32,000 bases of DNA from an uncultured Methanobrevibacter sp. (GCF_900314695.1 NZ_OMWD01000007.1:12641-44640), one strand, 5' to 3'; shown: positions 6,408-28,741, counted from the stretch's first letter. Translations and numbers: made by a program. Notes: generated by a model not told the origin, from the sequence alone.

Positions 6408-6434
6408 AATTATTATATTTGGATGTGAATAGTT

Positions 6435-6641
6435 ATGCAATTAAGTGCTAGAAATCAATTAGAAGGAAAAATTACTAATGTTGAAAAAGGAGCTGTTATG
6501 GCTAATATTAAAATTGAAATTGCTGATCCTAATGTTATTACTGCTGTGATTACTAAAGAGTCTGCTGAAAAATTAGGTTTATCTGAAGGTGATGATGTAA
6601 CTGCAATCATCAAATCTACTGAAGTTATTATAGGAAAATAA
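6435..6641 (+). CDS. mop: molybdenum-pterin/molybdate-binding protein Mop, tandem paralogue
   Basis: 68 aa, differing from the upstream copy at 7 residues. The family signature is the same. Confidence 0.85.
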   Translation: MQLSARNQLEGKITNVEKGAVMANIKIEIADPNVITAVITKESAEKLGLSEGDDVTAIIKSTEVIIGK

Positions 6642-6656
6642 GTTTAGGAATTAGGA

Positions 6657-6791
6657 TTAAATTCCTAATAATCCTAATAATATAGAAATAATAAATATAA
6701 TTATTGCGGCTTTAAACAATGTTTTAAAGCCTTTTACCACTGCATAAATTATTAGAAATAGTATTAATATTCTAATAATATTCATTACCAT
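6657..6791 (-). CDS. possible 44-aa hydrophobic micro-protein (two predicted TM segments)
   Basis: It is below the ORF-track length cutoff. The sequence is ATG GTA ATG AAT..., giving MVMNIIRILILFLIIYAVVKGFKTLFKAAIIIFIISILLGLLGI*. An AGGAGG SD sits 6 nt upstream and overlaps the moaE stop. Confidence 0.3.
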   Translation of the reverse strand: MVMNIIRILILFLIIYAVVKGFKTLFKAAIIIFIISILLGLLGI

Positions 6792-6793
6792 TT

Positions 6794-7231
6794 TTAACCT
6801 CCTGCGAGGATTGTTTTAGTTCCTTCTTCGGAAATTTCCTCTTTTTTAAATTCAACTTCATATTTTACGGTTTCAATAACTTCTTTTAATGCATCAAGGG
6901 TTTCTCCCCTGTGTGCACCTAAAACCGCAACAAGGAATAACATGTCTCCAGTATAGAATTCACCAATGTAGTGAACGACTGAAATTTCGTGAACATTATA
7001 TTTAATTTTAGCATTATCTACAATCTTTTCAATTTCTGATTTTGTTTTTTCTTTATCAGGTGTTGTTAGAATAAGCTTTTTTAAGTTCATGTTCTCTTCT
7101 TTTCCACGTACAATTCCTTCAAATGTGAAAATTGCACCGGAATAATCTATTTTGCTACTTTTTTTCAATTCGTCTATTAAATCTGCTGTTGTTACTTTGT
7201 CTTCTTTTGCTTCGATTACACGTACAACCAT
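6794..7231 (-). CDS. moaE: molybdopterin synthase catalytic subunit MoaE
   Basis: GAIFTFEGIVRG ... VVHYIGEFYTGDMLFLVAVLGAHRGETLDA ... EVEFKKEE aligns with E. coli MoaE (GAVVTFTGKVRN ... VIHRIGELWPGDEIVFVGVTSAHRSSAFEA ... PFWKRE). Confidence 0.8.
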   Translation of the reverse strand: MVVRVIEAKEDKVTTADLIDELKKSSKIDYSGAIFTFEGIVRGKEENMNLKKLILTTPDKEKTKSEIEKIVDNAKIKYNVHEISVVHYIGEFYTGDMLFLVAVLGAHRGETLDALKEVIETVKYEVEFKKEEISEEGTKTILAGG

Positions 7232-13170: not shown

Positions 13171-14853
13171 CTATAGGTATTTTATATTCAGGCTCTCATT
13201 ACCTGATTTTACATAATCTTTAAGTTCCTTTTCAATTTCCAGAATATTGTTGTTGTATATCAAGTTGTTTGAAAGATTTTCAAATTTTAGATTTTCAACT
13301 TTAACAACTGCATTTTCATTATATATGATAAATGAATCTTCATGCTCTCTTTTGATTATGAATTGTGATGATTTGATATGTGATTTGCCGTTTTCAAGGA
13401 ATATCAAATTGTTGTTAAAGCTGTCTCTTGTAAATCTGGATTTTTCAATTATCAATTCGCTGCTTTCATTATCATTTTGAAATATTATGTTGGAATACTT
13501 GTTTGAAATGTTATTAATGGATTTGCAATTTTTCATCCAAACAATTGAGGCATTGAATAGAACGCTTCCCTGTTTAAACGCTTTGTTTTCTTTAAACCTG
13601 CATTCATCAAGTGAAACATTTCCCTCATTATTGAGGACTCCTCCATTTTTAGCGACGTTTGATTTAAAACAACAATTGTTCAAATCTAAAATCTTTTTGT
13701 TGTCGATTGCACCGCCATTTCCAATGGCTGAATTGTATAAAAAATTGCAGTCAGTCAGTTTCAAATTTCCACAATTGCCTATTGCACCTCCATTATCGGA
13801 ATTTGCAATGTTCTTGTTGAAATTGCACTTTTTCGCCTCAAGGGTGCCTTCGTTTTTGAGGGCTCCTCCGTAAGATGAAATGTTGCAATCGAAATCGCAG
13901 TTGAATAAGCTCAGAGATTTTCCTTTGTTGATTATCGCTCCGCCTTCTTTGGATGTGCCATTCCTGAAGTTGATGTTTGATAAAGAAACATTGTCCGCAG
14001 TGATTTTGAAGATATTTGACATTCCCATGGCATCAATCCTGTGGCCGGCCCCATCAATCCTTAAATTGTCGATGTCAATAACAATCTCATTTTTTCCTTT
14101 AAATTCAATATCGCAATCAAGTTTGATTTCACTTTTTCCGCTTTGAATCAAATCATTCAGGTATTTTGGTGATTTTGCATCATTTGAATTGATGTGTATG
14201 AATCCACCGTGGGTTATCCCATTAATGAAATCCTTTTGAAAGCTTTTGATGTTAATGATTCCAACATTATAAACTTCAATGTCCTGTGCTTTGCGGCCCA
14301 TTTTAAAGTTGCAGGTTTCCAAAGTCAAATCCGATGCATTGAATATTGACGGTCCCTTTGACGAATTGTTGTTTGAAAAATTGGAAAACATCACGGTCAT
14401 GGTCTTTTTGTTGTATATTGCACCTCCAAAGCGAGCAGTATTGCTTCTAAAATCACAGCTATCAATAATTACAGAGCCGTTTTCATTGTAAATAGCTCCA
14501 CCATTGTCTCGGGCGGAATGGTTGTTGATGAAATTGCATTCAATAATTCTCAATTTCCCATTCCTGTTGTAGATGGCGCCTCCGGCCTGATCTGGATGTG
14601 CATTTTTAAAGGTAATGTTTTTTAGGGTAATGTTGTCTCCAGTGATATTGAAGATTTGTTCCCTGTTTGAGGTGATTGCATAGTTTTTCCCGTCAATTGT
14701 GATGTTGTCTGTGTTGATATTGACGGTTTTGGTTAAATCAATGTCCTTTTTTAAAGTGATTTCCTTTAAACCTTTATTGATTAAGGACTCAATGTCATTT
14801 TCATCAATTTCTGGGGAAGAAATAACCTTTGTAATTCTGTCTTTAAAACCCAT
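13171..14853 (-). CDS. parallel beta-helix protein with PMP-type GGAI repeats (Methanobrevibacter 'adhesin-like protein' type), no signal peptide
   Basis: At least 8 GGA(I/L)xN motifs (GGAIYNRNG, GGAIYNENG, GGAIYNKK, GGAIINKG, GGALKNEG, GGAIGNCG, GGAIDNKK, GGVLNNEG) are interleaved with C.F..N motifs. The N-terminus MGFKDRITKVISSPEIDEND is hydrophilic. Confidence 0.75.
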   Translation of the reverse strand: MGFKDRITKVISSPEIDENDIESLINKGLKEITLKKDIDLTKTVNINTDNITIDGKNYAITSNREQIFNITGDNITLKNITFKNAHPDQAGGAIYNRNGKLRIIECNFINNHSARDNGGAIYNENGSVIIDSCDFRSNTARFGGAIYNKKTMTVMFSNFSNNNSSKGPSIFNASDLTLETCNFKMGRKAQDIEVYNVGIINIKSFQKDFINGITHGGFIHINSNDAKSPKYLNDLIQSGKSEIKLDCDIEFKGKNEIVIDIDNLRIDGAGHRIDAMGMSNIFKITADNVSLSNINFRNGTSKEGGAIINKGKSLSLFNCDFDCNISSYGGALKNEGTLEAKKCNFNKNIANSDNGGAIGNCGNLKLTDCNFLYNSAIGNGGAIDNKKILDLNNCCFKSNVAKNGGVLNNEGNVSLDECRFKENKAFKQGSVLFNASIVWMKNCKSINNISNKYSNIIFQNDNESSELIIEKSRFTRDSFNNNLIFLENGKSHIKSSQFIIKREHEDSFIIYNENAVVKVENLKFENLSNNLIYNNNILEIEKELKDYVKSGNESLNIKYL

Positions 14854-15001: not shown

Positions 15002-15907
15002 ATGGCGCATGATGTTTTTATTAGTTATTCAACAAAAAATACAGAATATGCAGATGCGGTCTGTAAAAAACTAGAAGATAATGGTATTGAATGTTGGATT
15101 GCACCGAGGAATATTAAAACTGGTACCAATTATGCCAAAGAGATTATGGACGGTTTGAAATTATCCAAACTGGTTGTTTTGATTTTTTCTAAAGACGCGC
15201 AGGAATCTGAATATGTCAACAATGAAATCGATACTGCTTTTTCGAAAAACGGTCAACCTATTGTTGCATTGAAAGTTGATGATTCATTTCCTGAAAAACA
15301 AATGGAATTCTTTTTGAAAAATTCCCAATGGTTGGATGCATCTCCTACTGCACTTAAAAAAGAAAACAAAACACTTGACAGTTGTTATGACCAATTAGTT
15401 GGTGATGTTCAACGCATATTGGATGGAAAAACTCCAGTTTCAGATTCTGGCGGTGTTGGAAACATTGTTATACCTGGCAAGGAAAAAGGATTTTTTGATA
15501 AATATAAATGGCCTATTGTAATTGCGGTTATTCTTTTGATTGCTGTTGGAGGGTTTTTGGCTTATAGTAATATGAACGGTCAATCAGGCAACGGGTCAAA
15601 TGAAACTGGAATGTCTATAGGGTATATTGGTTTGGAAAAATATGGTGATGCCTACACTTATTTTGTATTTGGAGATATTGCTGAAGGATTCAGCAACTCA
15701 TCTAGTGATGTGATTCATATTGATTATTATGACAATTCTGGAAAAGTTGTCAAAAGCAGCAATACTAAAATTGGTGATGTTGACGGTAATATTTTAGGTT
15801 CTGTTGACGTAAACAAAAAGGATATAGTTAAAGTTTCAGCACAATTGCAGAATAAGGACAAAAAGGTATTGTATAGTGTAGAAAGTGATAATATTATAGA
15901 ACAGTAG
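15002..15907 (+). CDS. TIR domain - TM helix - small extracellular domain protein (paralogue 1)
   Basis: HDVFISYSTKN...GIECWIAPRNIKTG.NY..EI...LKLSKLVVLIFSKDAQESEYVNNEIDTA...PIVALKVDD is a TIR_2-type domain that includes the conserved Glu (NNEID). The TM helix is KW-PIVIAVILLIAVGGFLAY (aa 170-188) with Lys-rich residues on its N side. The C-terminal ~110 aa carry a VIHIDYYDNSGKVV (FxLYD-like) motif. A GGTGA SD precedes the ATG. Confidence 0.85.
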   Translation: MAHDVFISYSTKNTEYADAVCKKLEDNGIECWIAPRNIKTGTNYAKEIMDGLKLSKLVVLIFSKDAQESEYVNNEIDTAFSKNGQPIVALKVDDSFPEKQMEFFLKNSQWLDASPTALKKENKTLDSCYDQLVGDVQRILDGKTPVSDSGGVGNIVIPGKEKGFFDKYKWPIVIAVILLIAVGGFLAYSNMNGQSGNGSNETGMSIGYIGLEKYGDAYTYFVFGDIAEGFSNSSSDVIHIDYYDNSGKVVKSSNTKIGDVDGNILGSVDVNKKDIVKVSAQLQNKDKKVLYSVESDNIIEQ

Positions 15908-15918
15908 TGGGGTTTATT

Positions 15919-16794
15919 ATGGCTGATGAGGTATATATCTGTTATGATGAACGGGACTTGGAAATGGCAAAAAAGGTTTGTGACACTTTAGAGGACAATG
16001 GATTGGATTGCTGGTTGAAAAACCGTGACACCGGCGCAAAACACATGGTTGATGAAATCATGAATGCAATCAAAAAATCCAAAGTTATGGTTTTGTTATA
16101 TTCACAAAACTCCAAGGATTCCAATTTTGTTAACAATGAGGTGGATATTGCATTCGCAGAAAAAAGATCAATTTTGGTCTTTCAAATTGATGATTCAAAA
16201 TTGGACGGCAGTTTAGAATTCTTCTTGAGGAATAAACCTAGGATTCAAGCTTATCCAAATCCTGAAGATAGATTTGACCGTTTGGTTCAAAACACTTCAA
16301 AACTTGTAAAAGAACAGTCAGCAATCGACAGGAACATTGGTAATGTTATTAAAAATCATAAAGTTCCAGTAATTATTGGAATTGTAGTTATTTTGCTTGT
16401 TGTAGGTGTTTTAGGATATATGATGTATAATGGAGGAAGTGGCACAACGAATGCCACTCAAATAAAAGCAGGTGATATTAAGCTCAATATCACAGATTTC
16501 CATGTGGATGATGTCAGAAAGGAAAAAACTAACTGGAACTACTCTTATTATGTGGGTGGAAAAATTTCTCCAGCACCTGGTGATCAGGATGGGTGCGTGA
16601 TTGTCGTTGATTTCTATGATGAATCAGGTAAACTGGTTGAAACAACAGAAACTCCATTTAAAGATGCTCAAAAGGTTAGTTCTGGATTTTTACTAGGATC
16701 TGCAACATCTGATAAGAACAATATTAAACTTGCAGATGCCCAATTGGTTAATAAGGAGAATATTATTATTGCTCAGGATGAAGCGCAATTATGA
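15919..16794 (+). CDS. TIR domain - TM helix - small extracellular domain protein (paralogue 2)
   Basis: EVYICYDERD...GLDCWLKNRD...KKSKVMVLLYSQNSKDSNFVNNEVDIA...ILVFQIDD. The TM helix is VPVIIGIVVILLVVGVLGYMMY. The C-terminal domain has VIVVDFYDESGKLV. An alternative GTG start at 15907 would overlap the upstream stop (TAGTG). Confidence 0.85.
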   Translation: MADEVYICYDERDLEMAKKVCDTLEDNGLDCWLKNRDTGAKHMVDEIMNAIKKSKVMVLLYSQNSKDSNFVNNEVDIAFAEKRSILVFQIDDSKLDGSLEFFLRNKPRIQAYPNPEDRFDRLVQNTSKLVKEQSAIDRNIGNVIKNHKVPVIIGIVVILLVVGVLGYMMYNGGSGTTNATQIKAGDIKLNITDFHVDDVRKEKTNWNYSYYVGGKISPAPGDQDGCVIVVDFYDESGKLVETTETPFKDAQKVSSGFLLGSATSDKNNIKLADAQLVNKENIIIAQDEAQL

Positions 16795-16818
16795 TTTTTG
16801 TTAAGGGTGATGATTATT

Positions 16819-17598
16819 ATGGATAAAAAATATATTCTAATAATTCTTTTGATTGCAGTGATTGCCGTGGTTGGAGGTTATTTCCTATTGAATGGAAACA
16901 ATATTCAAACTGTATCCGGCGAACAAACTACAATTGTTTTAAGTAAATCAGCATATATGGAAGTTCCTAAAGATTCAAATGCTACATCCAATGCTGATAA
17001 AAAGGGAATTTTCTATTATAAGGATAAAGATGATAATATAAACATTACTAGTTGTTCCAATTTGTCCGCTTCATCAAGTGTTAAGGAAATGAAGAAACTT
17101 AAGAATTCAGTTTCAACCGGAGCCAAGAAAATGGTTGAAAACGATGTGGTTGTGTATGAAAAGGATGGTATATACTCAGTATTCGCTAAAAATACTCAGT
17201 ATAATGATACCTTATTGATACAATCATCTGATAAAAACGTTTTATTGGCATGTTGGAATAGTGTTAAATACCACGATCCAACCGATAAAATTAAGTTTAA
17301 CGGTACTGCAGGCGATAATGGATCTGGTTCTGTAGTTAATGCTATCGAGCAAACTCAAAGTGCTGTTCAGGCTAGTGAATCTTCTTCTAGTTCTTACAGT
17401 GAGTCATCATCTTCCAGTTCCTCATCCGATTCATCTTATGATTATTCAGGTTCTGGTAGTGGAGGTTACAGTGACTTTGGTTTTGACACTGGTTCATCCA
17501 GTTCAGGTTCCAGTTCTAGTGGATCCAGCGGCGGGGGTTACAGTGACTTTGGTTTCGGATACTTTGGTTACTATAGAGATTTAGGATTTATCCTTTAA
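16819..17598 (+). CDS. signal-anchored extracellular protein with a Ser/Gly-rich tail and GGYSDFGF repeats
   Basis: N-terminal TM helix (YILIILLIAVIAVVGGYFL), a ~150-aa soluble domain, then SESSSSSYSESSSSSSSSDSSYDYSGSGSGGYSDFGFDTGSSSSGSSSSGSSGGGYSDFGFGYFGYY. A GGTGA SD lies 8 nt before the ATG at 16819. Alternative starts are at 16798 and 16810. Confidence 0.65.
   Translation: MDKKYILIILLIAVIAVVGGYFLLNGNNIQTVSGEQTTIVLSKSAYMEVPKDSNATSNADKKGIFYYKDKDDNINITSCSNLSASSSVKEMKKLKNSVSTGAKKMVENDVVVYEKDGIYSVFAKNTQYNDTLLIQSSDKNVLLACWNSVKYHDPTDKIKFNGTAGDNGSGSVVNAIEQTQSAVQASESSSSSYSESSSSSSSSDSSYDYSGSGSGGYSDFGFDTGSSSSGSSSSGSSGGGYSDFGFGYFGYYRDLGFIL
17464..17555 (+). repeat. 20-nt direct repeat ggttacagtgactttggttt (17464..17483 and 17536..17555) within a low-complexity Ser/Gly coding tract
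   Basis: Read directly from the sequence. It encodes the duplicated GYSDFGF peptide. Confidence 0.8.
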
Positions 17599-17815
17599 TC
17601 TCTTTTTTTCTATTTTCATGTACATGGGTATTTTAACAATTTTTCTTTTTATGGTTCATCATGTTTTTTCAGTAAGTAATGGTCAATTAAACTGATGGTT
17701 TTGTGCTTTTTTTCATTTTAATTAATGACTTCTTTACAAATATTTGACTTTTCAAGTGGCACTGAATATCGTTTTTCTTAATTAAAGCATTTGCTTTACA
17801 TTAGAATTTAAAATA

Positions 17816-17825
17816 TTTATATATA
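17816..17825 (+). promoter_or_regulatory. TATA-box-like element (TTTATATATA) upstream of the HD-RyR gene pair
   Basis: It lies about 77 nt upstream of the ATG at 17902, inside a 303-bp non-coding spacer. TATA-like strings are common in this AT-rich DNA, so specificity is low. Confidence 0.25.
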
Positions 17826-17901
17826 CTAATTGATTCCATATTTAAACATATAAAAATTAAATCAATGGGTAACTAGAAAATTGATATGATTAGGTGTTAG
17901 C

Positions 17902-20157
17902 ATGGGTGAAAGTAATTTAAGACAATATATTGATGATTTTTTTGATGAATTAATCCTCTATGATGATTATTACAATGGCCATTACTATAAAATGCTGTTA
18001 AAAACAGGAATTGATGTTTTTCTAGATAATGAGAATTCATATACTGCCTATGAAATTTATAGGACATTTTTCATGATTTATCAGATCTCACATGAAAACA
18101 AATCTGAAAAACATTCTCCTAACGAAATAAAAATCGTTAAAGAGAAAAATATCCTTTTGGATTTGGTTAAGACAATGAAAGATTATGAAGAAAATACTGG
18201 AGATTTGATTGAAAAGCAAAGGGACCATTTTATTCACTCTGTAAATGTTTTTCTATTAGGATTGGCAATTTATTCTCAAAATAAAAGTTATAGGGATAAA
18301 TTCAAACAGTATGTTCTTAATAGTCCTTATAAAAAATATTATAGGATTGACGGCGAATTTTCTCATGAGGAATTTTTATACCGTTGGGGTGTAGCAGCCC
18401 TTTTCCATGACATAGGTTATCCTGTTGAAATTATTGGAAAACAATTAAAAAAATTTATCAATGATGGAATTAAATCTATTTCAAGTAGCTACAATGCCGA
18501 TACTGCAATTGATTTTAAAGATTTCAATGAATTTAACACAATCGTTAAAAAGGATCCTAATTTTGCAGACAAATACACTTCCGTTTATCCTGAAGCAAAA
18601 TTTTTAAACTTATTTAAACCTACTGACATCATGGCCCATAAGATTTCTACTGATTTTAAGGGAATTGATGTTAATCAGGTAATCAAACACCTTGACTCCT
18701 TTGTTGACATCATGGGGGACAGCGGTTTTATCGACCACGGGTTCTTTTCATCAATTTTGGTTTTAAATTCCTACGGGTATCTGATTCAAAAATATGCTAA
18801 AAACAATGATTTCTTCTTTTATCCGATAGTTGACAGTGCTACAGCTATTCTGTTGCACAACTATTATAGAAATGTTTTGCAAAAAAAGCCTTTTGATTTA
18901 AAAACTTTGCATCCGTCTCAATCTCCATTGGCGTTCCTGCTGATTTTATGTGATGAGCTTCAGGAATGGAACAGACAGCCTTTTGGTGTTAAAGACAAGC
19001 AAAGAAGCCATGTAAATGAATTGGTTATAAATATTGATGACAGGGGAATGGATGTGGAATATATTGTTAGGGAAGGTGCAATGGGACTCGGCTTTTCTGA
19101 AGATAAAGAGGAATTCCTTAAAACAGTCTTATCATTAAGAAGCATTTTCAAATTTGGTTTGAGAATAATCACCGATGTTTCACAGGATAACATTATTAGG
19201 GAAAATGTTCACTCAGAAGCTCAAGCGCCGGATATCCTGCTTAGAAATGTTGAAACCATTGCTATTCAAATTCACAATCAGTATGTGGAAACCACCAAAC
19301 AGCAATATGAAGAAAAGCTTGCACTGGGTGAAGAAATTGATGATGAATTCATGGAAAAATACAATAACCTGACTACATTTGATGAGTTAACTCCACAGCT
19401 TAAAATAGCAAACATTAGACAGGCAAGGTCAATCCCAAATAAATTGGATATCATCGGCTGTGAAATTGCATCTAATGATGATGAAAGAGATGCAATTTTA
19501 AGATTCTCTAAAGATGAAATTTTGGATTTGGCTATTCTGGAGCATCAGGAATGGTGTGATGAAAAAATAGGTACTGGTTGGACTTTGGGTGAAAAAGATG
19601 TTGAGAATCTCGTTACTCCTTATCTTGTTCCATGGGATGAGTTGACAGAGGATATTCAACAGTATGATATTGACCCTATTAAGAACATTATTCCGCTTAT
19701 GGATTCTTTAGGGTTGAAGGTTGTAAGAACTAAAGAGAGGCTTTTAACATTTGAAATGCATAATTTTTACTCAGAATATAACAAGAGTGCCGGTCATTTC
19801 GATGATTTGCCAAGCTATATTAAATATTCCAACTATAAACAGACTGATTTCCTTTTAAGAATCTTGTCTGAGTTGGGTTATGATGTAATTGATATTGAAG
19901 ATGCTGGTGAGACAGTAATGTCATTTGATGAGGATTCAATTGAATATTTAGCTAAAAGGGAACATAATGAGTGGTATAAACTTAAAGTTAACTTGGGATG
20001 GACATATGATGCAGTCAAAGATGATGTGGCAAAAACCAACCCTAATTTAGTGGAATGGGATCAGCTTGACCATGAAACCAAGGAGCTGAACAGACGCACA
20101 TTCAGAAACCTCCCTCAATTATGTGGAAATGTTGGCTTGAAAATTGTTAAAAATTAG
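17902..20157 (+). CDS. HD-domain phosphohydrolase fused to four RyR (ryanodine-receptor-type) repeats, paralogue 1
   Basis: HD motifs: RDHFIHSVNV (H109/H112), AALFHDIGYP (H169-D170), IDHGFFSS (H279), AILLHNYY (H319) and LILCDELQEWNR (D351). Canonical RyR-type repeats: LAILEHQEWCDEKIGTGWTLGEKD...TPYLVPWDELTEDIQQYDIDPIKNI...LGLKVV, and LAKREHNEWYKLKVNLGWTYDAV...NPNLVEWDQLDHETKELNRRTFRNL...VGLKIV. Each is preceded by a divergent repeat (IAIQIHNQY...FDELTPQLKIANIRQARSIPNKLDIIGCEI, and LTFEMHNFY...FDDLPSYIKYSNYKQTDFLLRILSELGYDV). An AGGTG SD is present. Confidence 0.8.
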   Translation: MGESNLRQYIDDFFDELILYDDYYNGHYYKMLLKTGIDVFLDNENSYTAYEIYRTFFMIYQISHENKSEKHSPNEIKIVKEKNILLDLVKTMKDYEENTGDLIEKQRDHFIHSVNVFLLGLAIYSQNKSYRDKFKQYVLNSPYKKYYRIDGEFSHEEFLYRWGVAALFHDIGYPVEIIGKQLKKFINDGIKSISSSYNADTAIDFKDFNEFNTIVKKDPNFADKYTSVYPEAKFLNLFKPTDIMAHKISTDFKGIDVNQVIKHLDSFVDIMGDSGFIDHGFFSSILVLNSYGYLIQKYAKNNDFFFYPIVDSATAILLHNYYRNVLQKKPFDLKTLHPSQSPLAFLLILCDELQEWNRQPFGVKDKQRSHVNELVINIDDRGMDVEYIVREGAMGLGFSEDKEEFLKTVLSLRSIFKFGLRIITDVSQDNIIRENVHSEAQAPDILLRNVETIAIQIHNQYVETTKQQYEEKLALGEEIDDEFMEKYNNLTTFDELTPQLKIANIRQARSIPNKLDIIGCEIASNDDERDAILRFSKDEILDLAILEHQEWCDEKIGTGWTLGEKDVENLVTPYLVPWDELTEDIQQYDIDPIKNIIPLMDSLGLKVVRTKERLLTFEMHNFYSEYNKSAGHFDDLPSYIKYSNYKQTDFLLRILSELGYDVIDIEDAGETVMSFDEDSIEYLAKREHNEWYKLKVNLGWTYDAVKDDVAKTNPNLVEWDQLDHETKELNRRTFRNLPQLCGNVGLKIVKN

Positions 20158-20171
20158 TGTCGGTGGAAATT

Positions 20172-22535
20172 ATGGATAATGGGGGAAGTTCTACTAATAT
20201 CGGCAAGTATGTTGATAAGTTCTTTGACATGCTGGTTTTATACGATGATAATCTGGTATTTAAGGACGGTACAAAAAGCAATCATGACTATAAAGGCCTT
20301 CTAAAAGCAGCAATTGATGTATTTTTAAACCATCAATCCAACTATACTGCTTATGAGGTCTATCAAACTTTTTTCATGATGTATCAAATCACTCCTGAAG
20401 ACAAAAGTGAAATCGATGAAAAAAGCCCTGACGTTTTGATTAGTGAACCCAATTATCTTCTTGATTTGGTAGACATAATGAGAAAGTATGAGGAAAATAC
20501 TGGTGAATTGATAAACTGGCAAAGGGACCATTTCATCCACTCAGTCAATGTTTTCATATTGGGTTTAGCAGTATATGCTCAAAATCAATCTTACAGAGCC
20601 ATATTTCAAAATTATATTCTTAAAAATAAGCATTATAAAAAATATTATCGGATTGATGGCAATTTTTCTCATGAGGAATTCCTATATCGATGGGGTGTAG
20701 CAGCGCTGTTTCATGATATAGGCTATCCATTTGAAATAATAGGAAAACAGCTGGATAAGTTAATCGAAGATGGGATAAAAAACATTTCCCATAGCTATGA
20801 CAATGTCAAGATGGGTCTTGATTTTAGGGATTTCGATGAATTTAATGTAATTGCCAAGCTGGATCCGTTTGATTATGCAGACCAATACCGTGAAAGATAT
20901 TCAGATTCTAAAGTTCTAGACTTATTTAAGCCTACAGATATTATGGCTCATAAGCTCAAATTGGACTTTGGATTTGACAATGAAGTATATAAAAAGTTAA
21001 TCAAACATCTCAACGGTTTTCCCAGATTCATGACTGAAAGGGATTTTGTTGACCATGGATTTTTCTCAGCTATCTTGGTTTTGAATTCCTATGGAAAACT
21101 GATACAGAAATATGCAAAAAAGGATAAGGATTTCTTTTTCTATCCTATTGTAGATAGTGCTACTGCAATCCTGCTTCATAATTATTACAGTAATGCCCTA
21201 CAAAAGCCACCCTTTAATTTTGGCAAGCTAAGGCCTAAACAGTCTCCAATTTCTTATTTGTTAATTTTATGCGATGAGCTTCAGGAATGGAACAGACAGC
21301 CATATGGCGTTTTGGATGTAAAGGAAAACCATGTAAACGATTTGGATGTTGTCATTGATGATGAATACATGAAGGTTATCTATATTTTAAATAATGGGCC
21401 TATGGGTTTTGGATTTTCCAAAAAGAAGGATGATGTGATTGATAATGTCTTGGAGATTCAGGATATTTTCCTTGGTAAATTATCCATCAGAACAAAAATT
21501 GAATTGGATAATGTTATAAGGGACATTTCCATTGCTGAAATTCAAACTCCCAATATTTTACTAAGAAATGTTGAAAAATTGGCCAGGCAAATCAATGATG
21601 AGTACAATGAGGAATTGAAAGCCAAACTGGATGAAGCCATTAAAAAAGGTGATGAAAAGGAAATTGAAGAATATAAAGAAAAATGTTCATATTTATGTGA
21701 TTTTGAAGATTTAAGTGCCGATTATAAAATTTCCAATATTCGTCAGGCAAAATCAATTCCAAAGAAATTGAGCATGATAGGATGCGAAATTGCACACATT
21801 GATGATGAAAGGGACGAAATCACCAAATTTGATGAAAAGGAGATTGAGGATTTGGCGATATTTGAGCATGTTGACTGGTGCAGGGAAAGAAAAGGTACCG
21901 GATGGTCTTATGGTGATGTAAAAAATCCTGAAGAGCGCAGAACACCTTATCTTGTCTCATGGGAAAAGCTTCCTGATGATATAAAGGATATGGATCGAAA
22001 AGCAACTGAAAATATTCCAAATCTTTTAAATTCAATTGGTCTGAAAGTCGTTAGAAATAAAATCAGATTGCTTACCTTTAAAATGCATCAGTTTTATGAA
22101 ACAGGCAGTTTGGATGATAAGTCAGATGGTGAAAAAAGATTTAAGGAATTGCCGAAGCATGTTCAGTATTCCAATTATAAGCAAGCCGATTATCTGGTTA
22201 AAATTTTAAAGGAAAAAGGATTTGAATTGGTTTCTCTAAATGATTCAAGGGATAAAATTCATAGATTTGATGAAGAGGATATTGAATATTTCGCCAAAAG
22301 GGAACATGAAGGGTGGTTAAAACTTAAACTTAATTTAGGTTATGCACATCTTCCGATTGACGAATCAGATATTCAAAAAATAGAAGAAGGTATTCGAGAG
22401 TCCCATAATCCAAATCTTGTTTCCTGGAAAGACCTTGATATAAATGTTAAAAAGGCAAATAAGGATACTTTCATCAATCTTCCGAAATTATGTGAAGACC
22501 CGAATGTAGCTTTAAAAATTGTCAGAAGGCAGTAA
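20172..22535 (+). CDS. HD-domain phosphohydrolase fused to four RyR-type repeats, paralogue 2
   Basis: Same architecture and motifs: RDHFIHSVNV, AALFHDIGYP, VDHGFFSA, AILLHNYY, LILCDELQEWNR, LAIFEHVDWCRERKGTGWSYGDV...TPYLVSWEKLPDDIKDMDRKATENI...IGLKVV, and FAKREHEGWLKLKLNLGYAH...NPNLVSWKDLDINVKKANKDTFINL. A GGTGGA SD precedes the ATG at 20172. An alternative GTG at 20157 overlaps the upstream stop (TAGTG). A 29-nt string (gatgagcttcaggaatggaacagacagcc) is identical in both paralogues. Confidence 0.8.
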   Translation: MDNGGSSTNIGKYVDKFFDMLVLYDDNLVFKDGTKSNHDYKGLLKAAIDVFLNHQSNYTAYEVYQTFFMMYQITPEDKSEIDEKSPDVLISEPNYLLDLVDIMRKYEENTGELINWQRDHFIHSVNVFILGLAVYAQNQSYRAIFQNYILKNKHYKKYYRIDGNFSHEEFLYRWGVAALFHDIGYPFEIIGKQLDKLIEDGIKNISHSYDNVKMGLDFRDFDEFNVIAKLDPFDYADQYRERYSDSKVLDLFKPTDIMAHKLKLDFGFDNEVYKKLIKHLNGFPRFMTERDFVDHGFFSAILVLNSYGKLIQKYAKKDKDFFFYPIVDSATAILLHNYYSNALQKPPFNFGKLRPKQSPISYLLILCDELQEWNRQPYGVLDVKENHVNDLDVVIDDEYMKVIYILNNGPMGFGFSKKKDDVIDNVLEIQDIFLGKLSIRTKIELDNVIRDISIAEIQTPNILLRNVEKLARQINDEYNEELKAKLDEAIKKGDEKEIEEYKEKCSYLCDFEDLSADYKISNIRQAKSIPKKLSMIGCEIAHIDDERDEITKFDEKEIEDLAIFEHVDWCRERKGTGWSYGDVKNPEERRTPYLVSWEKLPDDIKDMDRKATENIPNLLNSIGLKVVRNKIRLLTFKMHQFYETGSLDDKSDGEKRFKELPKHVQYSNYKQADYLVKILKEKGFELVSLNDSRDKIHRFDEEDIEYFAKREHEGWLKLKLNLGYAHLPIDESDIQKIEEGIRESHNPNLVSWKDLDINVKKANKDTFINLPKLCEDPNVALKIVRRQ

Positions 22536-22722: not shown

Positions 22723-22869
22723 ATGGCAAGATTTGAAGAAGCAGAAAATAGAATGTTTAATGTAAAAATCTGCTTAAAATGTAATGCTCGTAACCCTGCT
22801 GCTGCAACTACTTGCAGAAAATGTGGTTACAAAGGTTTAAGATTCAAAGCTAAAGAACCGAGAGGATAG
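22723..22869 (+). CDS. rpl40e: 50S ribosomal protein L40e
   Basis: It is not in the ORF track (48 aa). [48 protein letters not shown] has a CxxC...CxxC zinc ribbon typical of archaeal L40e. A strong AGGAGGAG SD lies 8 nt upstream. Confidence 0.85.
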
Positions 22870-23765: not shown

Positions 23766-24833
23766 ATGTTAAATTCACTATATGAAAAAGCCATCGCTAA
23801 AAGAGGATTTATACAAGATATTGAGTCAGACAATAATTTGGATGCTCAACTTGAAGTAAACTGGTTTTCAAGAGAATTCAGTGAGAGTTCTGATGATTTT
23901 TCCATCGCTGCGGGAGATGGGAGCTTCAACAAAAAGAAGTTTTTAAAAAGCAACTTCTGTGCTGTAGGTGCCGAATCCATAATTTACGATGGTGAAATAA
24001 AAAAAATCGATGATGCTGATATTTTGGAAGTAAATCATATCTCTTTTTTGGATGAGCTTTTAAGCAGTTATATGTCAATATTGGAACTTAAATGTGCGTC
24101 TAGGGCTATCAAGGAATATGATGTAGATTATTACTTATTCGATGGATCCATTTTAGGAGATTTGGAAAATGCATATCCAAGAGGTGCTGAACTTCCATCC
24201 AAAATCAGAGATAACTTGGATGAAACCATTTTGAATGAATTTAAGAGAAGATTGGAAATAACACCATTTGGATTCGTATTTCCTCAAATTAAAGAAAGAA
24301 TATTGGCTGATGTAAGTGTAAATGAGGAATTTGAGCAAAAGGAAGATTTTGACCTTCATTTGTCTTCAATCGAGAAAATAATATTGTTAAAAGAAATTTT
24401 GGAAAACAAGAAAAAAATCATTTCAATATCCAAAACATCTTCAGACAATGATTTGTTTGGATGGAACATTCCGGACATTTCAATTTTAGATAATTTGACA
24501 GATAAAAAGCAGGGAATATCAAGAATTGAGTATAGGCGAGTCTATAAGAATGCATCTTTCCAGTATTTCAATGATTTTTTCAAACAATTGAAATTTACGG
24601 TATTTTATGTAAGGCTTCAGGACAATAAAAATGTATTGAAAGTTGAATTGCCTTACAAAGCATCGATAAGTGAAGTTGTAGATGTTGTAGAGAAGATAAA
24701 TGTATTGTCAGTTCAAGGTTATCCTTATTTGCTGAGTAAGGCACATAATGATGTAGTCATTACTGACAGGAATATTAAAGAATTATTAAAACTTGCTAAA
24801 ATTTATGAAACAACAAACAGGGAAATGTTATAG
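23766..24833 (+). CDS. nurA: DNA double-strand-break repair nuclease NurA
   Basis: IAAGDGSFNKK (catalytic Asp motif), YYLFDGSILGDL and a C-terminal GYPYLLSKAHNDVVI. It sits immediately upstream of herA. Confidence 0.8.
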   Translation: MLNSLYEKAIAKRGFIQDIESDNNLDAQLEVNWFSREFSESSDDFSIAAGDGSFNKKKFLKSNFCAVGAESIIYDGEIKKIDDADILEVNHISFLDELLSSYMSILELKCASRAIKEYDVDYYLFDGSILGDLENAYPRGAELPSKIRDNLDETILNEFKRRLEITPFGFVFPQIKERILADVSVNEEFEQKEDFDLHLSSIEKIILLKEILENKKKIISISKTSSDNDLFGWNIPDISILDNLTDKKQGISRIEYRRVYKNASFQYFNDFFKQLKFTVFYVRLQDNKNVLKVELPYKASISEVVDVVEKINVLSVQGYPYLLSKAHNDVVITDRNIKELLKLAKIYETTNREML

Positions 24834-24842
24834 GTGGTTTAG

Positions 24843-26342
24843 ATGGTAGTTGGAATTTGTGTTGGCGAAACATCACTTTCAGAAGTTACTTTCATTTCAG
24901 ATAAGATGCCGAAAGTTGGAGAATATGTGACTATTGAATACGATGGAAAAAAAGTATTGGGAATGATTGAAAATCTAATTAGAGGTAATGATGCTTTAAA
25001 TGTTGATATCAACGATTTCAAAGCCATTCGAAAGATTTCACAAATAGGTGCTGAGGATAACTATATTCGAGGTAAAGTAAAGATTCTTGGAGATGTCAAT
25101 GATAATCTGAAATTGCCGAGAACCCCTGTGCTTCCTGGAACTGAAATAAAGCTGGCTGACAGGGATACTTTAAATGAAATATTCAAGGTTAACAATCCCA
25201 TTAAATTAGGATGTCTTGTAAATCAGAGTGATGTGGACGTTAATGTTGAAGCAAACCCAATTTTGTCAAGACACCTTGCAATTTTAGCAATGACTGGAGC
25301 TGGAAAATCAAATACTGTATCTGTTTTAATAAATGAAATGTTAAGTTATTTTGTTCCGGTATTCGTATTTGATATGCATGGTGAGTATGTTGGAGCCAAT
25401 TTCCCAAATGGTGAAGTTAATGTTATTAAACCTAAAATAAATCCTGTTTACATGTCTTTTCATGAGATAAAAAGATTGGTTAACATTCCGAGTAATGGTT
25501 ATATTCAGGAAAGACATTTCAGAAGAGCATTTAAGACAGCTAAGGAAATGGTTCGCAGTGGAACAGCACATACAAATAACTTTTTACAAATTATTTATGA
25601 TATTCTATTAAGCGATTCTCAAGAAGAGGGCTCAGACAAGCAAATTGTTGATGTAATGAATAAGATTGACGATTCGATGGATAAGTATGCCAATATCTTT
25701 GACAATAACATTGGAAATATATTGACAAACATTAAAATAGGTCATGTTAATGTTTTGGACTTAAGCCAGTCTGACGAATCAATTGCAAATGTATTGGTAA
25801 GTCATATTATGAGAAATGCTTTGCAAATGAGAAAAAATGCAGTTCATGGAAAAGATGAAAGAGCATTGGATTTTCCAGTATTTTTCATATTGGAGGAGGC
25901 ACATATATTGGCTCCTAATAAACGTGATTCAGATTCAAAACGTTGGATTCAAAGGGTTGCTAGAGAAGGACGTAAATTCGGATTGGGATTATGTTTGGTA
26001 AGTCAGTCTCCAAAAACAGTTGACCATGATGCATTGTCCCAAATGAATAATATGATTATTTTGAGGCTTGTTGAACCTGAAGACCAAAGGCATGTTCAGT
26101 CTGCAAGTGAAAGTTTATCACAGGATTTGGTTAATCAGCTTCCATCCTTAAATGTTGGTGAAGCTGTTGTTTTAGGTTTGATGAGCAAAGTACCAACTCT
26201 TGTCAAAATTGATGAATTTAAAGGTCGTCTTCATGGGGATGACATGGATATTGTTTCCTATTTTGCTGATATCAGGCAGAAAGAACAAGAAGAAATTGAA
26301 GAGTTGGAAAAAGAAAGCATGGAAATGGGTTATAATTATTAA
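24843..26342 (+). CDS. herA: DNA double-strand-break repair helicase HerA
   Basis: N-terminal HAS-barrel-like region, Walker A LAMTGAGKSNTV, Walker B FFILEEAHILAP and REGRKFGLGLCLVSQSP. An AGGTGG SD is present. Confidence 0.9.
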   Translation: MVVGICVGETSLSEVTFISDKMPKVGEYVTIEYDGKKVLGMIENLIRGNDALNVDINDFKAIRKISQIGAEDNYIRGKVKILGDVNDNLKLPRTPVLPGTEIKLADRDTLNEIFKVNNPIKLGCLVNQSDVDVNVEANPILSRHLAILAMTGAGKSNTVSVLINEMLSYFVPVFVFDMHGEYVGANFPNGEVNVIKPKINPVYMSFHEIKRLVNIPSNGYIQERHFRRAFKTAKEMVRSGTAHTNNFLQIIYDILLSDSQEEGSDKQIVDVMNKIDDSMDKYANIFDNNIGNILTNIKIGHVNVLDLSQSDESIANVLVSHIMRNALQMRKNAVHGKDERALDFPVFFILEEAHILAPNKRDSDSKRWIQRVAREGRKFGLGLCLVSQSPKTVDHDALSQMNNMIILRLVEPEDQRHVQSASESLSQDLVNQLPSLNVGEAVVLGLMSKVPTLVKIDEFKGRLHGDDMDIVSYFADIRQKEQEEIEELEKESMEMGYNY

Positions 26343-26521
26343 TCCTATTTCTTTTTTTTAATTTTAATATTAATTTTTCCTTATAATATTGTATGGACTT
26401 ATTTAGAAACTTATTTATATTAAATTGCTTATATAATTACTTAAAATTAAATATTGGAATTTATTATTTGTTTAAAAGCAATTTTACATATTAATAGCAA
26501 TTTTTCAATATTAAATCAATA

Positions 26522-26929
26522 ATGGGTACAATCATGTTTCAATGGAAAGATTTCAAAACGGTCGGCGATGAATTGATGGCTAATTCGCAGGGAGCATATA
26601 TAAGATGTGCTACAAGCAGATATTATTATTCTATTTTCGGTTCAACAAGAGAATATTTAATCGATATTATGAATAAACATCAATTTTGTAACGGAAAAGA
26701 TATTCATAAAAGAGTATCTGACGAGTTAATTAAGTCTAATGATCCAAATGAGGTAAATTTGGCTGAATGTTTAAAATTTTTAAGGGAAGTTAGAAACCGT
26801 GCTGATTATGATAGATTAAATGAATGTAATACTTTTTTTAAAAATAATTCTGATAAGTTTGTTGATACAACAAATGATGCATTTAATTCATTAAATGTGT
26901 TAATGAATAATCCGCCATATAATTTTTGA
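26522..26929 (+). CDS. HEPN-like domain protein
   Basis: RCATSRYYYSIFGSTREYL (the aisRaYYaxF helix) and LKFLREVRNRADYD (the R-N-x-A-D-Y helix-4 motif) resemble PF05168/SAV_6107-type HEPN domains. There is no canonical Rx4-6H histidine. An alternative start is at 26534. Confidence 0.6.
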   Translation: MGTIMFQWKDFKTVGDELMANSQGAYIRCATSRYYYSIFGSTREYLIDIMNKHQFCNGKDIHKRVSDELIKSNDPNEVNLAECLKFLREVRNRADYDRLNECNTFFKNNSDKFVDTTNDAFNSLNVLMNNPPYNF

Positions 26930-26938
26930 GGTGTTATT

Positions 26939-27331
26939 GTGGATGATTTGGATTTCGTTAAAAAATTAGAAAGTAATGCGGAGTTATTCAACAGAGAATA
27001 TGATAAATTGGGAGAATTTTATAATGTTCGTCATTATGAAAAAATTCATGATTACTTTGTTAAACATAAGGGCCTTATTGTATTATTAAATAAACTTAAA
27101 TCTAGGTTATCTGAAGATTTTCCTACTGGTAAATTTGATTTAGTGCATTATACTGATTATGAATATTCAGATTGGTCTTATATTTTGTTATATATTAAAG
27201 TTGATGATTATACATTTAATAATGGGGTTATGGAAGATATAAAAAAGATTACTTTTGATTTTATTCCATTAAGACGTAAATTAGGTGTAATGTCTGATTT
27301 GTCTTTAAGGCCTGCATTATATGATTGCTAA
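26939..27331 (+). CDS. hypothetical protein, translationally coupled partner of the HEPN-like protein
   Basis: The GTG start is preceded by a GAGGTG SD that overlaps the HEPN gene stop. It is 130 aa, with no family and no MNT-type GSx10-20DxD motif that I can recognise. Confidence 0.5.
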   Translation: MDDLDFVKKLESNAELFNREYDKLGEFYNVRHYEKIHDYFVKHKGLIVLLNKLKSRLSEDFPTGKFDLVHYTDYEYSDWSYILLYIKVDDYTFNNGVMEDIKKITFDFIPLRRKLGVMSDLSLRPALYDC

Positions 27332-27505
27332 TCAAATTTAAGTCATTTATTTTCATTTTCTTTTTAAATTTTAAATTCATTTTACTTTTCAACTGCTCTC
27401 TTTCCAAACTATTAAATATACTATATGATAAAATATTATTCAATTAAATACTTTGATTTAAGTGTTTAAATTGGTTATATACAATTGACAAAAAAAGGTA
27501 ATATA

Positions 27506-28741
27506 ATGAAATTTGCACATTTAGCAGACACTCATTTAGGTTATCGTCAATTTGGTTTAATTGAACGTGAAAAAGACTTTTATGAAGTGTTTGAAAAGGT
27601 TATAGATAAAATAATTGAAGAAAAAGTGGATTTTGTAATCCATAGTGGTGATCTATTTGAAACCGCAAGACCGTCCCCTATTGCACTTTTAACCTTCCAG
27701 AAAGGATTGCTTAAATTAAAAGGTGCTGGAATTCCTATGTATGCAATAGCAGGTAATCATGATATTGTAATGCGTAATGATTCAATCCCGCCTCAAGTAA
27801 TCTTTAAAAAGTTGGGTTTAAAAGTAATCAGTCCTATTAATACTACTTATATGCATGGTGATATTTTTATAGCGGGCTTACCATTTTATCCGTCTTCTCA
27901 AGTTAAGAATTTAAAGTCTAAATTAGCTGATTTATCTAAAAAGGCTGCAAAACATGAAAAATCAATTCTTGTATTGCACCAAGGCATTGATAAATACTTT
28001 GGACAAAATTATGAACTTGAAATCGGAGATTTGCCTGATAATTTTAATTATTATGCTTTGGGACACATTCACAATTATATCAATGATAATTTTGGAAATG
28101 GAAAATTGGTCTATCCGGGTTCTAGCGAAATATGGAAAACTAATGAATTAAAGGACTATAAGGAAAACGGAAAAGGTTTTGTTATAGTTGACTTTGATGG
28201 TCCAAAACCTCTTGTCAAAAGGGTTAAAGTTGATATTTCCCGTACATTCATTGAAAGGTCACTTGATTACAATGAACTTGAAAGTGGAATTGCCGGTTTA
28301 AAAGAAACAATTGTCGGCTTTGATAAAAAACCGATTTTAGATTTGAAAATTAACAATGTCGAATCAGATACCAACAGAGTTTATGAACTGATTAAGGAAG
28401 AGCTTGGTGATTTGTCTTTAATGATAAGACCTACATTCAGCATGCTTGGTGAAGATGACATTGATGTTATAATCAATCAAAAGGATTCTTTAGGTCCTTT
28501 GGAAATTCTAAAAGAGCAATTGGATGCTTATGGTGATGAATCTGTTACCCGATTGGGACTTGACGTTTATACTTTCCTATCAAAGGATAAGATTGATGAA
28601 GCTGATGAAATATTAAATCACTTCTTCGATGATTATTATCATAAAGACGAAGATGAAGAAACTGAAACTGAAGAAGAGGGAGAAGCAGAATCAGCTGATG
28701 AAAAGGATATTCAAGTTACATTTAAGGAGGTTCTAGAATGA
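27506..28741 (+). CDS. mre11: DNA double-strand-break repair nuclease Mre11
   Basis: Phosphoesterase motifs HLADTHLG, HSGDLFE, AGNHD, VLHQG and LGHIH, plus an acidic C-terminal tail. There is an ATGA overlap with rad50. Confidence 0.9.
   Translation: MKFAHLADTHLGYRQFGLIEREKDFYEVFEKVIDKIIEEKVDFVIHSGDLFETARPSPIALLTFQKGLLKLKGAGIPMYAIAGNHDIVMRNDSIPPQVIFKKLGLKVISPINTTYMHGDIFIAGLPFYPSSQVKNLKSKLADLSKKAAKHEKSILVLHQGIDKYFGQNYELEIGDLPDNFNYYALGHIHNYINDNFGNGKLVYPGSSEIWKTNELKDYKENGKGFVIVDFDGPKPLVKRVKVDISRTFIERSLDYNELESGIAGLKETIVGFDKKPILDLKINNVESDTNRVYELIKEELGDLSLMIRPTFSMLGEDDIDVIINQKDSLGPLEILKEQLDAYGDESVTRLGLDVYTFLSKDKIDEADEILNHFFDDYYHKDEDEETETEEEGEAESADEKDIQVTFKEVLE

Follow-up and report, generated by a model that had tools for sequence, protein, structure and literature searches.

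The window analysed here is a stretch of 32,000 nucleotides from an uncultured, rumen-type Methanobrevibacter sp. (GCF_900314695.1, NZ_OMWD01000007.1:12641-44640). Its close relatives are all Methanobrevibacter metagenome-assembled genomes, and one metagenome co-assembly contig (L034) is 100% identical to it. We investigated the region at positions 15002-22535, which an initial annotation, made from the sequence alone, had described as a five-gene island combining TIR-based membrane sensors with effectors that carry HD and RyR domains. The region holds the following features (TM, transmembrane):

15002..15907, + strand: TIR1, 301 aa; TIR domain at aa 5-114, TM helix at aa 171-189 and a beta-rich C-terminal ectodomain of ~110 aa
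15907..16794, + strand: TIR2, 295 aa; TIR domain at aa 9-126, TM helix at aa 155-173 and an ectodomain of ~110 aa
16798..17598, + strand: gene 3, encoding a signal-anchored protein with a TM helix at aa 13-31, an extracellular core and a Ser/Gly-rich tail
17599..17901, no strand: spacer of 303 bp, AT-rich, 23% GC
17902..20157, + strand: HD-RyR1, 751 aa; matches to Pfam RyR and to RyR Repeat12 in the PDB
20157..22535, + strand: HD-RyR2, 792 aa counted from GTG; match to Pfam RyR, architecture as in HD-RyR1

All five open reading frames (ORFs) lie on the + strand and the opposite-strand ORFs beneath them are all ≤77 aa, in line with the annotated arrangement of five co-directional genes facing an empty strand. 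The two paralogous pairs are likewise real: in BLASTP comparisons TIR1 and TIR2 share 31% identity (E 5e-41), and HD-RyR1 and HD-RyR2 share 55% over their full length. The sequence does contain the TAGTG stop/start junctions reported for both pairs, but translation is at least as likely to begin at in-frame ATGs 4-5 codons further downstream. The true start of TIR2 is probably the ATG at 15919, because the MADEVYICY encoded there parallels the MAHDVFISY of TIR1. HD-RyR2 likely starts at the ATG at 20172, since a Shine-Dalgarno (SD)-like GGTGGA precedes it, and gene 3 likely at the ATG at 16810 or 16819. The tight packing of both pairs holds whichever start codon is used.

Profile searches assign the two small paralogues to TIR. 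Pfam TIR_2 (PF13676) matched TIR1 with 78.2 bits (E 9.6e-22) and TIR2 with 62.2 bits (E 8.4e-17), both above the curated cut-off of 28 bits. The ThsB_TIR model was also above cut-off for both proteins, and PF01582 TIR for TIR1 only. Hydropathy plots showed one strong hydrophobic helix after the TIR domain in each protein, followed by the C-terminal domain of ~110 aa, which agrees with the TIR-TM-ectodomain layout given in the annotation. The catalytic-type Glu75 of TIR1 (nt 15224-15226) aligns with the Glu of NYELD in AbTIR and of QKELD in PdTIR, and TIR2 has Glu78 at the catalytic Glu position of the (W/Y)xxxE motif. A Glu stands in this column in 122 of 125 related TIRs, and the two TIR domains of the fusion proteins discussed below are among those that have it. 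In AbTir, the catalytic Glu is E208 (PMC10022894). TcpO of Methanobrevibacter olleyae is an active TIR NADase, which depletes NAD+ and makes the cyclic ADP-ribose (cADPR) isomer v-cADPR (2'cADPR) (PMC10022894). Like TIR1 and TIR2, TcpO has a Methanobrevibacter TIR_2-type domain with the catalytic Glu. It differs in that its TIR domain is C-terminal (aa 204-341 of 341 aa), whereas those of TIR1 and TIR2 are N-terminal and followed by the TM helix and the ectodomain. Judging from their sequences, we propose that the TIR domains of TIR1 and TIR2 are catalytically competent and lie inside the cell.

The protein encoded by gene 3 has one N-terminal TM helix (aa 13-31) and a Ser/Gly-rich tail; hydropathy and sequence both support its description as a signal-anchored protein. 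It was without a match in Pfam, NCBIfam and PADLOC, and no similarity to the TIR1 or TIR2 ectodomain could be detected. Gene 3 follows the TIR pair in eight related loci (L002, L004, L021, L025 and L030-L033). The TIR repertoire of Methanobrevibacter as a whole is large (P0293, P0334-P0346, P0352-P0384, P0473-P0507). Its fusion partners include the surface-type DUF285, BspA-type LRR_5, Big and CarboxypepD_reg domains as well as SIS and STAND-like NTPases, and the genus also has a ~270-aa family that combines TIR with PF27171. This repertoire suggests that receptor-like TIR proteins have expanded across the lineage.

Both large proteins contain RyR domains. Pfam RyR (PF02026) matched HD-RyR1 with 95.3 bits in two stretches (E 2.6e-27) and HD-RyR2 with 58.3 bits (E 9.3e-16), above the curated cut-off of 27.4. 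Matches to RyR1, RyR2, RyR3 and a Bacteroides thetaiotaomicron protein in the PDB ranged from E 1.7e-20 to 1e-8. The initial annotation counted four RyR repeats per protein. We found two full repeats with the core motif HxxW...GW, plus one extra weak partial match before repeat A obtained with our own hidden Markov model (HMM):

HD-RyR1 repeat A, aa 535-613: H548, W551, Thr, Asp
HD-RyR1 repeat B, aa 675-750: H688, W691, Asn, Asn
HD-RyR2 repeat A, ~aa 557-638: H571, W574, Thr, Asp
HD-RyR2 repeat B, ~aa 704-791: diverged, with an insertion

Two preprints of 2026 offer a comparison with RyR proteins of phages. RyDEP of mycobacteriophage DyoEdafos acts on 2'cADPR as well as 3'cADPR, by binding or cleavage, via H75, W78, H100 and D117; it is a glycosidase with H75 and D117 as catalytic dyad, while H100 contacts the phosphate, and most of the other phage RyR homologues tested bind the signal without cleaving it (PMC13232231). 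RyR Tad, gp68 of Pectobacterium phage CB1, sponges 3'cADPR (43 nM) and also binds 2'cADPR and cADPR (10.64898/2026.06.04.730250). We mapped the pocket residues of RyDEP onto the pattern HxxW ... HP ... YD(R) by motif spacing rather than by structural superposition. On this mapping, repeat A of both window proteins keeps the equivalents of H75, W78 and D117, i.e., three of the four pocket residues, with Thr at the H100 position. The single repeat keeps the His, the Trp and the Asp in all 14 distant HD-like-RyR units inspected. Repeat A and the phage proteins belong to the same Pfam family, and the HxxW helix and the Asp with which the phage proteins contact 2'/3'cADPR are conserved in repeat A. 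In contrast to RyDEP and RyR Tad, the window proteins are cellular, 750-790 aa long, and have two repeats and a conserved N-terminal module of 420 aa. Moreover, their family has Thr/Ser in place of H100, and their presumed role is signal reception, not evasion.

The window repeats also resemble the Repeat12 (R12) domain of animal ryanodine receptors, with E 1.7e-20 for a RyR1 repeat chimera and E 6e-14 for the R12 domain of RyR3, and in both cases two repeats stand in tandem. R12 and the 'putative ryanodine receptor' of Bacteroides thetaiotaomicron (PDB 3NRT, 6UAG) are homologues of the window repeats at the sequence level. The window repeats differ from R12 in that they come without a channel, are fused to a hydrolase-like module and are genetically linked to TIR.

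The N-terminal module of HD-RyR1 is all-alpha (aa 1-~365) and is followed by a small beta subdomain (aa 372-426). In an alignment of 31 sequences that are 23-40% identical to the query, from which the RyR columns were excluded (A4), no variation occurs at H109, H112, D170, D278, H279, H319 and D351, and at least 90% of the sequences have H169. The HD-type motifs HxxH, HD, DH, H and D occur in this order. We refer to the module as HD-like, for reasons given below.

One indication that these two kinds of protein belong together comes from gene fusions. An exhaustive search with the N-terminal module (HD-RyR1 aa 1-445) returned 1,223 representative clusters at 50% identity. In a set of 62 diverse members, RyR is present in the same chain in 39 and TIR_2 in 5. 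Four proteins have two TIR domains, the HD-like module and two RyR repeats (P0139, P0142, P0150, P0152), and another joins TIR to the HD-like module (P0187). Precomputed domain assignments list TIR_2 together with RyR in sixteen clusters, including P0291 of Methanosphaera sp. BMS, and P0354 and P0374 join TIR to RyR but lack the HD-like module. The TIRx2-HD-like-RyR fusions occur in both Methanosphaera and Methanobrevibacter, and they stand next to unfused paralogues: a Methanosphaera array reads [TIRx2-HD-RyR][HD-RyR], and a Methanobrevibacter array in an FHA/kinase context reads [HD-RyR 1021 aa][TIRx2-HD-RyR][HD-RyR][HD-RyR]. An HD-RyR variant of 1020 aa, found first in a four-gene array, carries an N-terminal extension of ~275 aa (P0065, P0082, P0099, L027:6898-9963), which was without a match to Pfam or to our own TIR HMM.

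Gene neighbourhoods in distant organisms point in the same direction. A metagenome scan yielded 80 loci, which mostly encode 38-51%-identical proteins of ~580-600 aa with the HD-like module and one RyR repeat; the contigs of the distant homologues come from many non-rumen metagenomes. Of the 67 distant loci, 27 have a TIR gene as an immediate neighbour. The figure is 25 of 50 where the contig has a neighbour on either side, and 18 of 45 after clustering at 80% identity; these counts are lower bounds, because the TIR HMM was built from Methanobrevibacter sequences only. TIR occupies 27 of 116 adjacent slots, whereas for all other slots the count is 10 of 386 (odds ratio 11.4, p 2.4e-11 in a Fisher test, with loci partly redundant). 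Pfam confirmed TIR_2 in all eight partner proteins sampled. The partner architectures comprise TIR_2-LRR_5, TIR_2-SBP_bac_5, TIR_2-WD40 and TIR_2-STAND NTPase, besides a DUF4062-NACHT-TPR protein, and partner TIRs with STAND, WD40 and LRR are typical of conflict systems. In nearly half of the distinct partner TIRs (11 of 24), the TIR domain is N-terminal and a TM helix comes after it (e.g., TIR-TM-SBP_bac_5), as in the window. Many distant loci consist of two genes, with the HD-like-RyR protein as the only candidate effector.

Some of the distant loci encode further proteins of interest. In nine environmental loci (L054:3643-5394, L064:9853-11619, L062, L065, L067, L080, L086, L092, L111), a 603-aa HD-like-RyR gene is directly followed by a gene for a TrkA_N (Rossmann/RCK)-RyR protein of 583-591 aa, a candidate second RyR-bearing output; six of the nine have a large TIR gene in the same locus. 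DUF4231 proteins of 530-572 aa, of which there are 4 among 103 neighbours, lie directly downstream of HD-like-RyR in, e.g., L102:9589-11307 and L106:3390-4982. The narrow Methanobrevibacter HMM found no TIR in the DUF4231 loci, where a neighbouring slot holds LRR or DUF4062-NACHT-TPR. We take DUF4231 to be an effector class of the SLATT type with two TM helices; if so, these neighbours are presumably also typical of conflict systems.

Since the fusions are independent of the window and TIR is enriched 11-fold next to distant homologues, a functional link between TIR and the RyR proteins is hard to avoid. The best reading of our results is a Thoeris-like pathway, in which an RyR sensor with an HD-like effector or output is paired with receptor-like TIR-TM proteins. 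We consider it somewhat probable that the two modules of the window, which are separately conserved and lie side by side in this lineage, work in one such pathway. The proposal of the initial annotation that the TIR and HD-RyR proteins share a pathway is thereby supported by the fusions, by the adjacency in distant organisms and by the shared TIR-TM topology. In such a pathway, TIR1, TIR2 and the gene 3 protein would form a receptor-like complex in the membrane whose small ectodomains face outwards. A cue at or beyond the membrane would make the TIR domains produce, from NAD+, a signal derived from ADP-ribose, which is most likely a cADPR isomer. The HD-RyR1/HD-RyR2 pair would act as receiver: RyR repeat A would bind the signal, and binding would switch on the N-terminal module as a metal-dependent HD-like hydrolase. 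The signal of TIR1 and TIR2, its binding by the window repeats, and the activity and target of the HD-like module are what we infer. An effector role of the HD-like-RyR proteins is favoured because of their layout, with an enzyme at the N-terminus and a sensor at the C-terminus, and because of the two-gene loci that have no other output.

The comparison with Thoeris (types I-XI) rests on several features. There too, a TIR with a catalytic Glu stands beside, or is fused to, a protein with an N-terminal enzyme and a C-terminal small-molecule-binding part, and ThsA (SIR2-SLOG) has the same enzyme-sensor order as the HD-like-RyR proteins. The distant partner TIRs also carry typical sensor modules, such as STAND NTPase, WD40 and LRR. 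In contrast to Thoeris, the putative sensor is an RyR repeat (PF02026) and the effector an HD-like module. In addition, the window TIRs are membrane-anchored with ectodomains, and the genes are conserved genus-wide instead of patchily.

The annotation knew of no described system that combines TIR with HD-RyR, and our searches agree within their scope. In PADLOC 2.0, genes 3-5 were without a match, the TIRs matched ThsB models weakly, and there is no model of TIR plus RyR. NCBIfam gave nothing above cut-off for the five proteins. The text and supplements searched of a survey of 29 Thoeris types contain no RyR, PF02026, HD or TrkA term, although its figures were not searchable. A literature search found no paper that combines RyR with TIR, SLOG or SLATT and no description of a host TIR plus RyR system, though it might appear in an unlabelled figure cartoon.

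Several observations weigh against the Thoeris-like pathway, and these concern the locus, the ligand, the N-terminal module and the distant loci. With respect to the locus, its flanks have to be considered first:

13171-14853, minus strand: adhesin-like POMP-repeat protein, upstream flank
22723-22869: L40e, 48 aa, downstream flank, followed by GGGPS, NurA and HerA
27485-28741 and 28738-31485: two ORFs after HerA, whose syntenic counterparts in L030-L032 are Mre11-/Rad50-type

These are the flanks that the annotation had named, with an adhesin-like gene on one side and L40e, GGGPS, NurA and HerA on the other. Together, these downstream genes (22723-22869 and 23766-31485) anchor the locus on that side and are conserved. 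On the upstream side of the TIR trio, adhesin-like genes with POMP/Chlam_PMP, beta-helix and Big domains occur in the window (13171-14853, minus strand) and in L021, L025, L030 and L032. Their number and size differ between relatives, and hence the surface-protein array, not the TIR trio, is the variable part. Elsewhere in the window, positions 5954-6793 form a stretch of ~840 bp without an ORF of at least 80 aa, in a region of low GC (0.265 over 6001-7000). No match came out of Rfam and tRNA scans across the whole window.

When the window genes were mapped onto 25 Methanobrevibacter species loci (L001-L025), only the closest relatives (L002, L004, L021, L025) had the TIR pair and gene 3 upstream of HD-RyR; L001 has kept gene 3 and lacks the TIRs, and L012 has neither. 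In ~14 of the 25 loci, the HD-RyR pair follows an RtcB-SIS-FHA-kinase/Hsp70-Metallophos block, with no TIR nearby. This alternative upstream block consists of RtcB, SIS, HTH-FHA, a 1170-aa Ser/Thr-kinase-Hsp70 fusion and a Metallophos phosphatase (e.g., L020:734-7995, L027:1-6887). It may represent a second functional link, to phospho-signalling or chaperones, or just synteny. An 834-aa Hsp70-family gene also lies near the HD-RyR pair of Methanosphaera (L026). Tandem pairs of H1-type and H2-type HD-RyR genes are conserved in most of the 25 loci. Conversely, TIR1 orthologues with 69%, 61% and 53% identity occur in a trio of TIR, TIR and a 235-aa protein (L030-L032), which abuts L40e-GGGPS-NurA-HerA-Mre11-Rad50 with no HD-RyR between. 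Where both modules are present, their divergence differs: HD-RyR1 of L004 and L025 is 81-82% identical to that of the window, whereas their trio reaches only 41-57%. This low identity, which extends over the whole membrane trio (L004:1543-3875 and L025:7426-9759 versus window 15002-17598), suggests allele replacement or fast evolution of the trio.

The spacer between the modules probably separates them as well. Direct reading and a pattern scan showed oligo-T tracts straight after gene 3 (17603-17609 and others), a TATA-like TTTATATATA at ~17823-17832, ~70 bp upstream of the ATG of HD-RyR1, and an SD-like GGTG before this ATG at 17902. The spacer thus probably contains a terminator and a promoter of its own for the HD-RyR pair; the annotation itself had cautioned that a separate promoter was probable. 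A scan for sigma-70 promoters and intrinsic terminators was without enrichment; these are bacterial models, which are not meaningful for an archaeon.

Hence, the discrete five-gene island of the initial annotation is better described as two modules, since the trio and the HD-RyR pair each occur without the other in relatives. They are separately conserved, have different histories, are probably transcribed separately, and are juxtaposed only in this lineage. Such a lineage-specific juxtaposition by itself favours the annotation's caveat that the adjacency could be coincidental. The annotation had also asked whether TIR genes co-localise with HD-RyR homologues above chance and whether the block sits in variable hotspots. 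The former is true of the distant loci; in Methanobrevibacter, the synteny of both modules is fixed. This genus-wide fixed synteny of both modules is unlike that of classical defence systems.

With respect to the ligand, Ser or Thr takes the place of H100 in 49 of the 50 distant-family units that were scored, and the degenerate repeat B has Asn instead of both H100 and D117. The ligand may therefore differ from that of RyDEP. Accordingly, the annotated role of the RyR repeats as the ligand-binding part gains from the binding of cADPR isomers by phage RyR domains and from the retained His, Trp and Asp, but is weakened by the change at H100.

The identity of the N-terminal module is less certain than its motifs suggest. 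Pfam HD (PF01966) reached only 14.4 bits in HD-RyR1, compared with a cut-off of 22 bits, and was without a match in HD-RyR2. It is nevertheless the only Pfam family that matched the module more than once (6 of the 31 members, all sub-threshold, best E 0.0037). The RyR-free profile A4 had zero matches among PDB sequences at E≤10; a profile that included the RyR columns (A1) was swamped by them. Alignment of A4 with a genuine HD domain (the C-terminus of P0219) by hhalign covered only 14 columns, around LFHDIG(Y/K)P. AlphaFold (AF2) models of the 445-aa module and its 281-aa core had confidence scores (pLDDT) of 81 and 84, and Foldseek found no significant match and no HD fold for either of them in the PDB. 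The only sensible weak matches, which were non-significant, were to the C-terminal domain of exopolyphosphatase (PPX), which we take to be HD-like. Therefore, given the sub-threshold Pfam scores, the null PDB profile, the 14-column alignment and the non-significant Foldseek results, we name the module HD-like only. It shares HxxH, (F)HD(I)G, DH, H and D on an all-alpha scaffold with the HD superfamily (PF01966, HD-GYP, class I phosphodiesterase (PDE), PPX), but it is sub-threshold in Pfam and without a PDB-profile or significant Foldseek match. The HD phosphohydrolase of the annotation stands as far as the (near-)invariant motifs are concerned, but not with respect to family cut-off or fold; the sequences and models suggest that the module may be either a very divergent HD/PDE domain or a new fold.

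With respect to the distant loci, both the TIR HMM, which was based on Methanobrevibacter sequences only, and the ORF calls were home-made, and the loci are partly redundant. The 103 other neighbours in these loci gave scattered single PADLOC matches and include many housekeeping genes, so the defence-island signal around distant homologues is weak. The fixed synteny and the weak defence-island signal speak against the interpretation as an immune module, the partner TIR architectures and presumably the DUF4231 neighbours for it, and an antiviral role of the TIR/HD-RyR pathway is unproven.

An alternative explanation keeps the proteins in the same pathway but reverses the role of the large ones. 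The HD-like-RyR protein might be a signal-turnover enzyme, in which RyR captures the nucleotide made by TIR and either the HD/PDE-like module or the His-Asp dyad of RyR destroys it, thereby resetting or buffering the signal, comparable to HD-GYP/EAL for cyclic di-GMP (c-di-GMP) and ring nucleases for cyclic oligoadenylates (cOA). We consider this rather unlikely, although it has several points in its favour. Repeat A keeps the residues of the catalytic dyad of RyDEP (H75 and D117). Fusions of synthase and hydrolase, as TIRx2-HD-like-RyR would then be, have a precedent in GGDEF-EAL/HD-GYP proteins, and other possible effectors (DUF4231, TrkA_N-RyR) are sometimes alongside. The HxxH...HD...D set presumably also resembles the sites of cyclic-nucleotide phosphodiesterases and HD-GYP-type proteins, which we count for this explanation. 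However, many distant operons consist of TIR and HD-like-RyR alone, which would leave signalling without an output, and effectors of Thoeris, CBASS and type III CRISPR are by standard built with the enzyme at the N-terminus and the sensor at the C-terminus. Furthermore, most of the phage RyR homologues tested bind and do not cleave (PMC13232231).

Another explanation is that the adjacency in the window is coincidental and that the trio and the HD-RyR pair act independently here, which we judge improbable. The trio would then be a self-contained surface-linked module that depletes NAD+, serves as a scaffold or signals to another partner. HD-RyR would be a housekeeping sensor of ATP, ADP, ADP-ribose (ADPR) or NAD+, perhaps tied to the FHA-kinase/Hsp70-phosphatase genes. 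The trio without HD-RyR at the same locus (L030-L032), the HD-RyR pairs without a nearby TIR in most species, the separate histories and probably separate promoters, and the conservation of both modules like core genes are all in agreement with this explanation. So are the recurrent FHA/Ser-Thr kinase-Hsp70/PPP neighbourhood of HD-RyR and the Hsp70-family gene near the Methanosphaera pair. Moreover, animal RyR Repeat12 binds ATP and adenine ligands, as quoted in the two phage preprints (PMC13232231, 10.64898/2026.06.04.730250). Yet, independence hardly accounts for the TIR-HD-like-RyR and TIR-RyR fusions and the 11-fold enrichment of TIR by distant homologues, and the many other TIR-TM proteins of Methanobrevibacter could feed the same receivers in trans.

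It is highly improbable that the large proteins serve a mobile element as RyR-type sponges or anti-defence factors instead of belonging to a host pathway. In favour of this, RyR-domain proteins associated with prokaryotes have been characterised only among phage anti-Thoeris factors (RyDEP, RyR Tad), and an HD-like-RyR protein is encoded on one IMG/VR contig (L114). We nevertheless rejected such an origin, as tblastn searches of phage and plasmid collections were almost empty, with 2 weak loci in 2.9 million viral contigs, the chromosomal synteny beside GGGPS/NurA/HerA or RtcB/SIS is fixed across the genus, the conserved, enzymatic-looking module of 420 aa is always attached, and fusions to TIR occur. 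The rare weak homologues on viral-labelled contigs, namely a 681-aa HD-like-RyR protein (L114:8001-8942, IMG/VR UViG_2898606423_000005) and one on MT836912.1 (a human faecal 'Bacteriophage sp.'), may be true viral genes or host fragments.

Our preferred reading of one Thoeris-like pathway leads to a further proposal, which we regard as possible but doubtful: the host RyR repeats could be native cellular receptors for cADPR-type messengers made by TIR, with the archaeal and bacterial TIR-TM-ectodomain proteins in the role of Toll-like transmembrane receptors, which would translate an extracellular cue into an NAD-derived second messenger for the HD-like-RyR effectors to read. The HD-like-RyR family would then be the source of the phage RyR sponges and a prokaryotic antecedent of the link between cADPR and the ryanodine receptor in animals.

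Signalling from TIR to an effector is known already from Thoeris; new would be a host sensor made of RyR repeats with an HD-like output. Such a host pathway would explain why phages carry RyR sponges and glycosidases against TIR signals, as these may be copies of the host receptor. It would also offer a simple, soluble and genetically linked model for whether Repeat12-type domains read cADPR-like ligands. The TIR-TM-ectodomain partners suggest sensing from outside the cell, which is unusual among prokaryotic TIR systems, and the hosts are methanogens of rumen and gut, in which virus defence and surface signalling are poorly known. With more than 1,200 representative clusters at 50% identity, the HD-like module would, if this reading is true, constitute a widespread new class of effectors.

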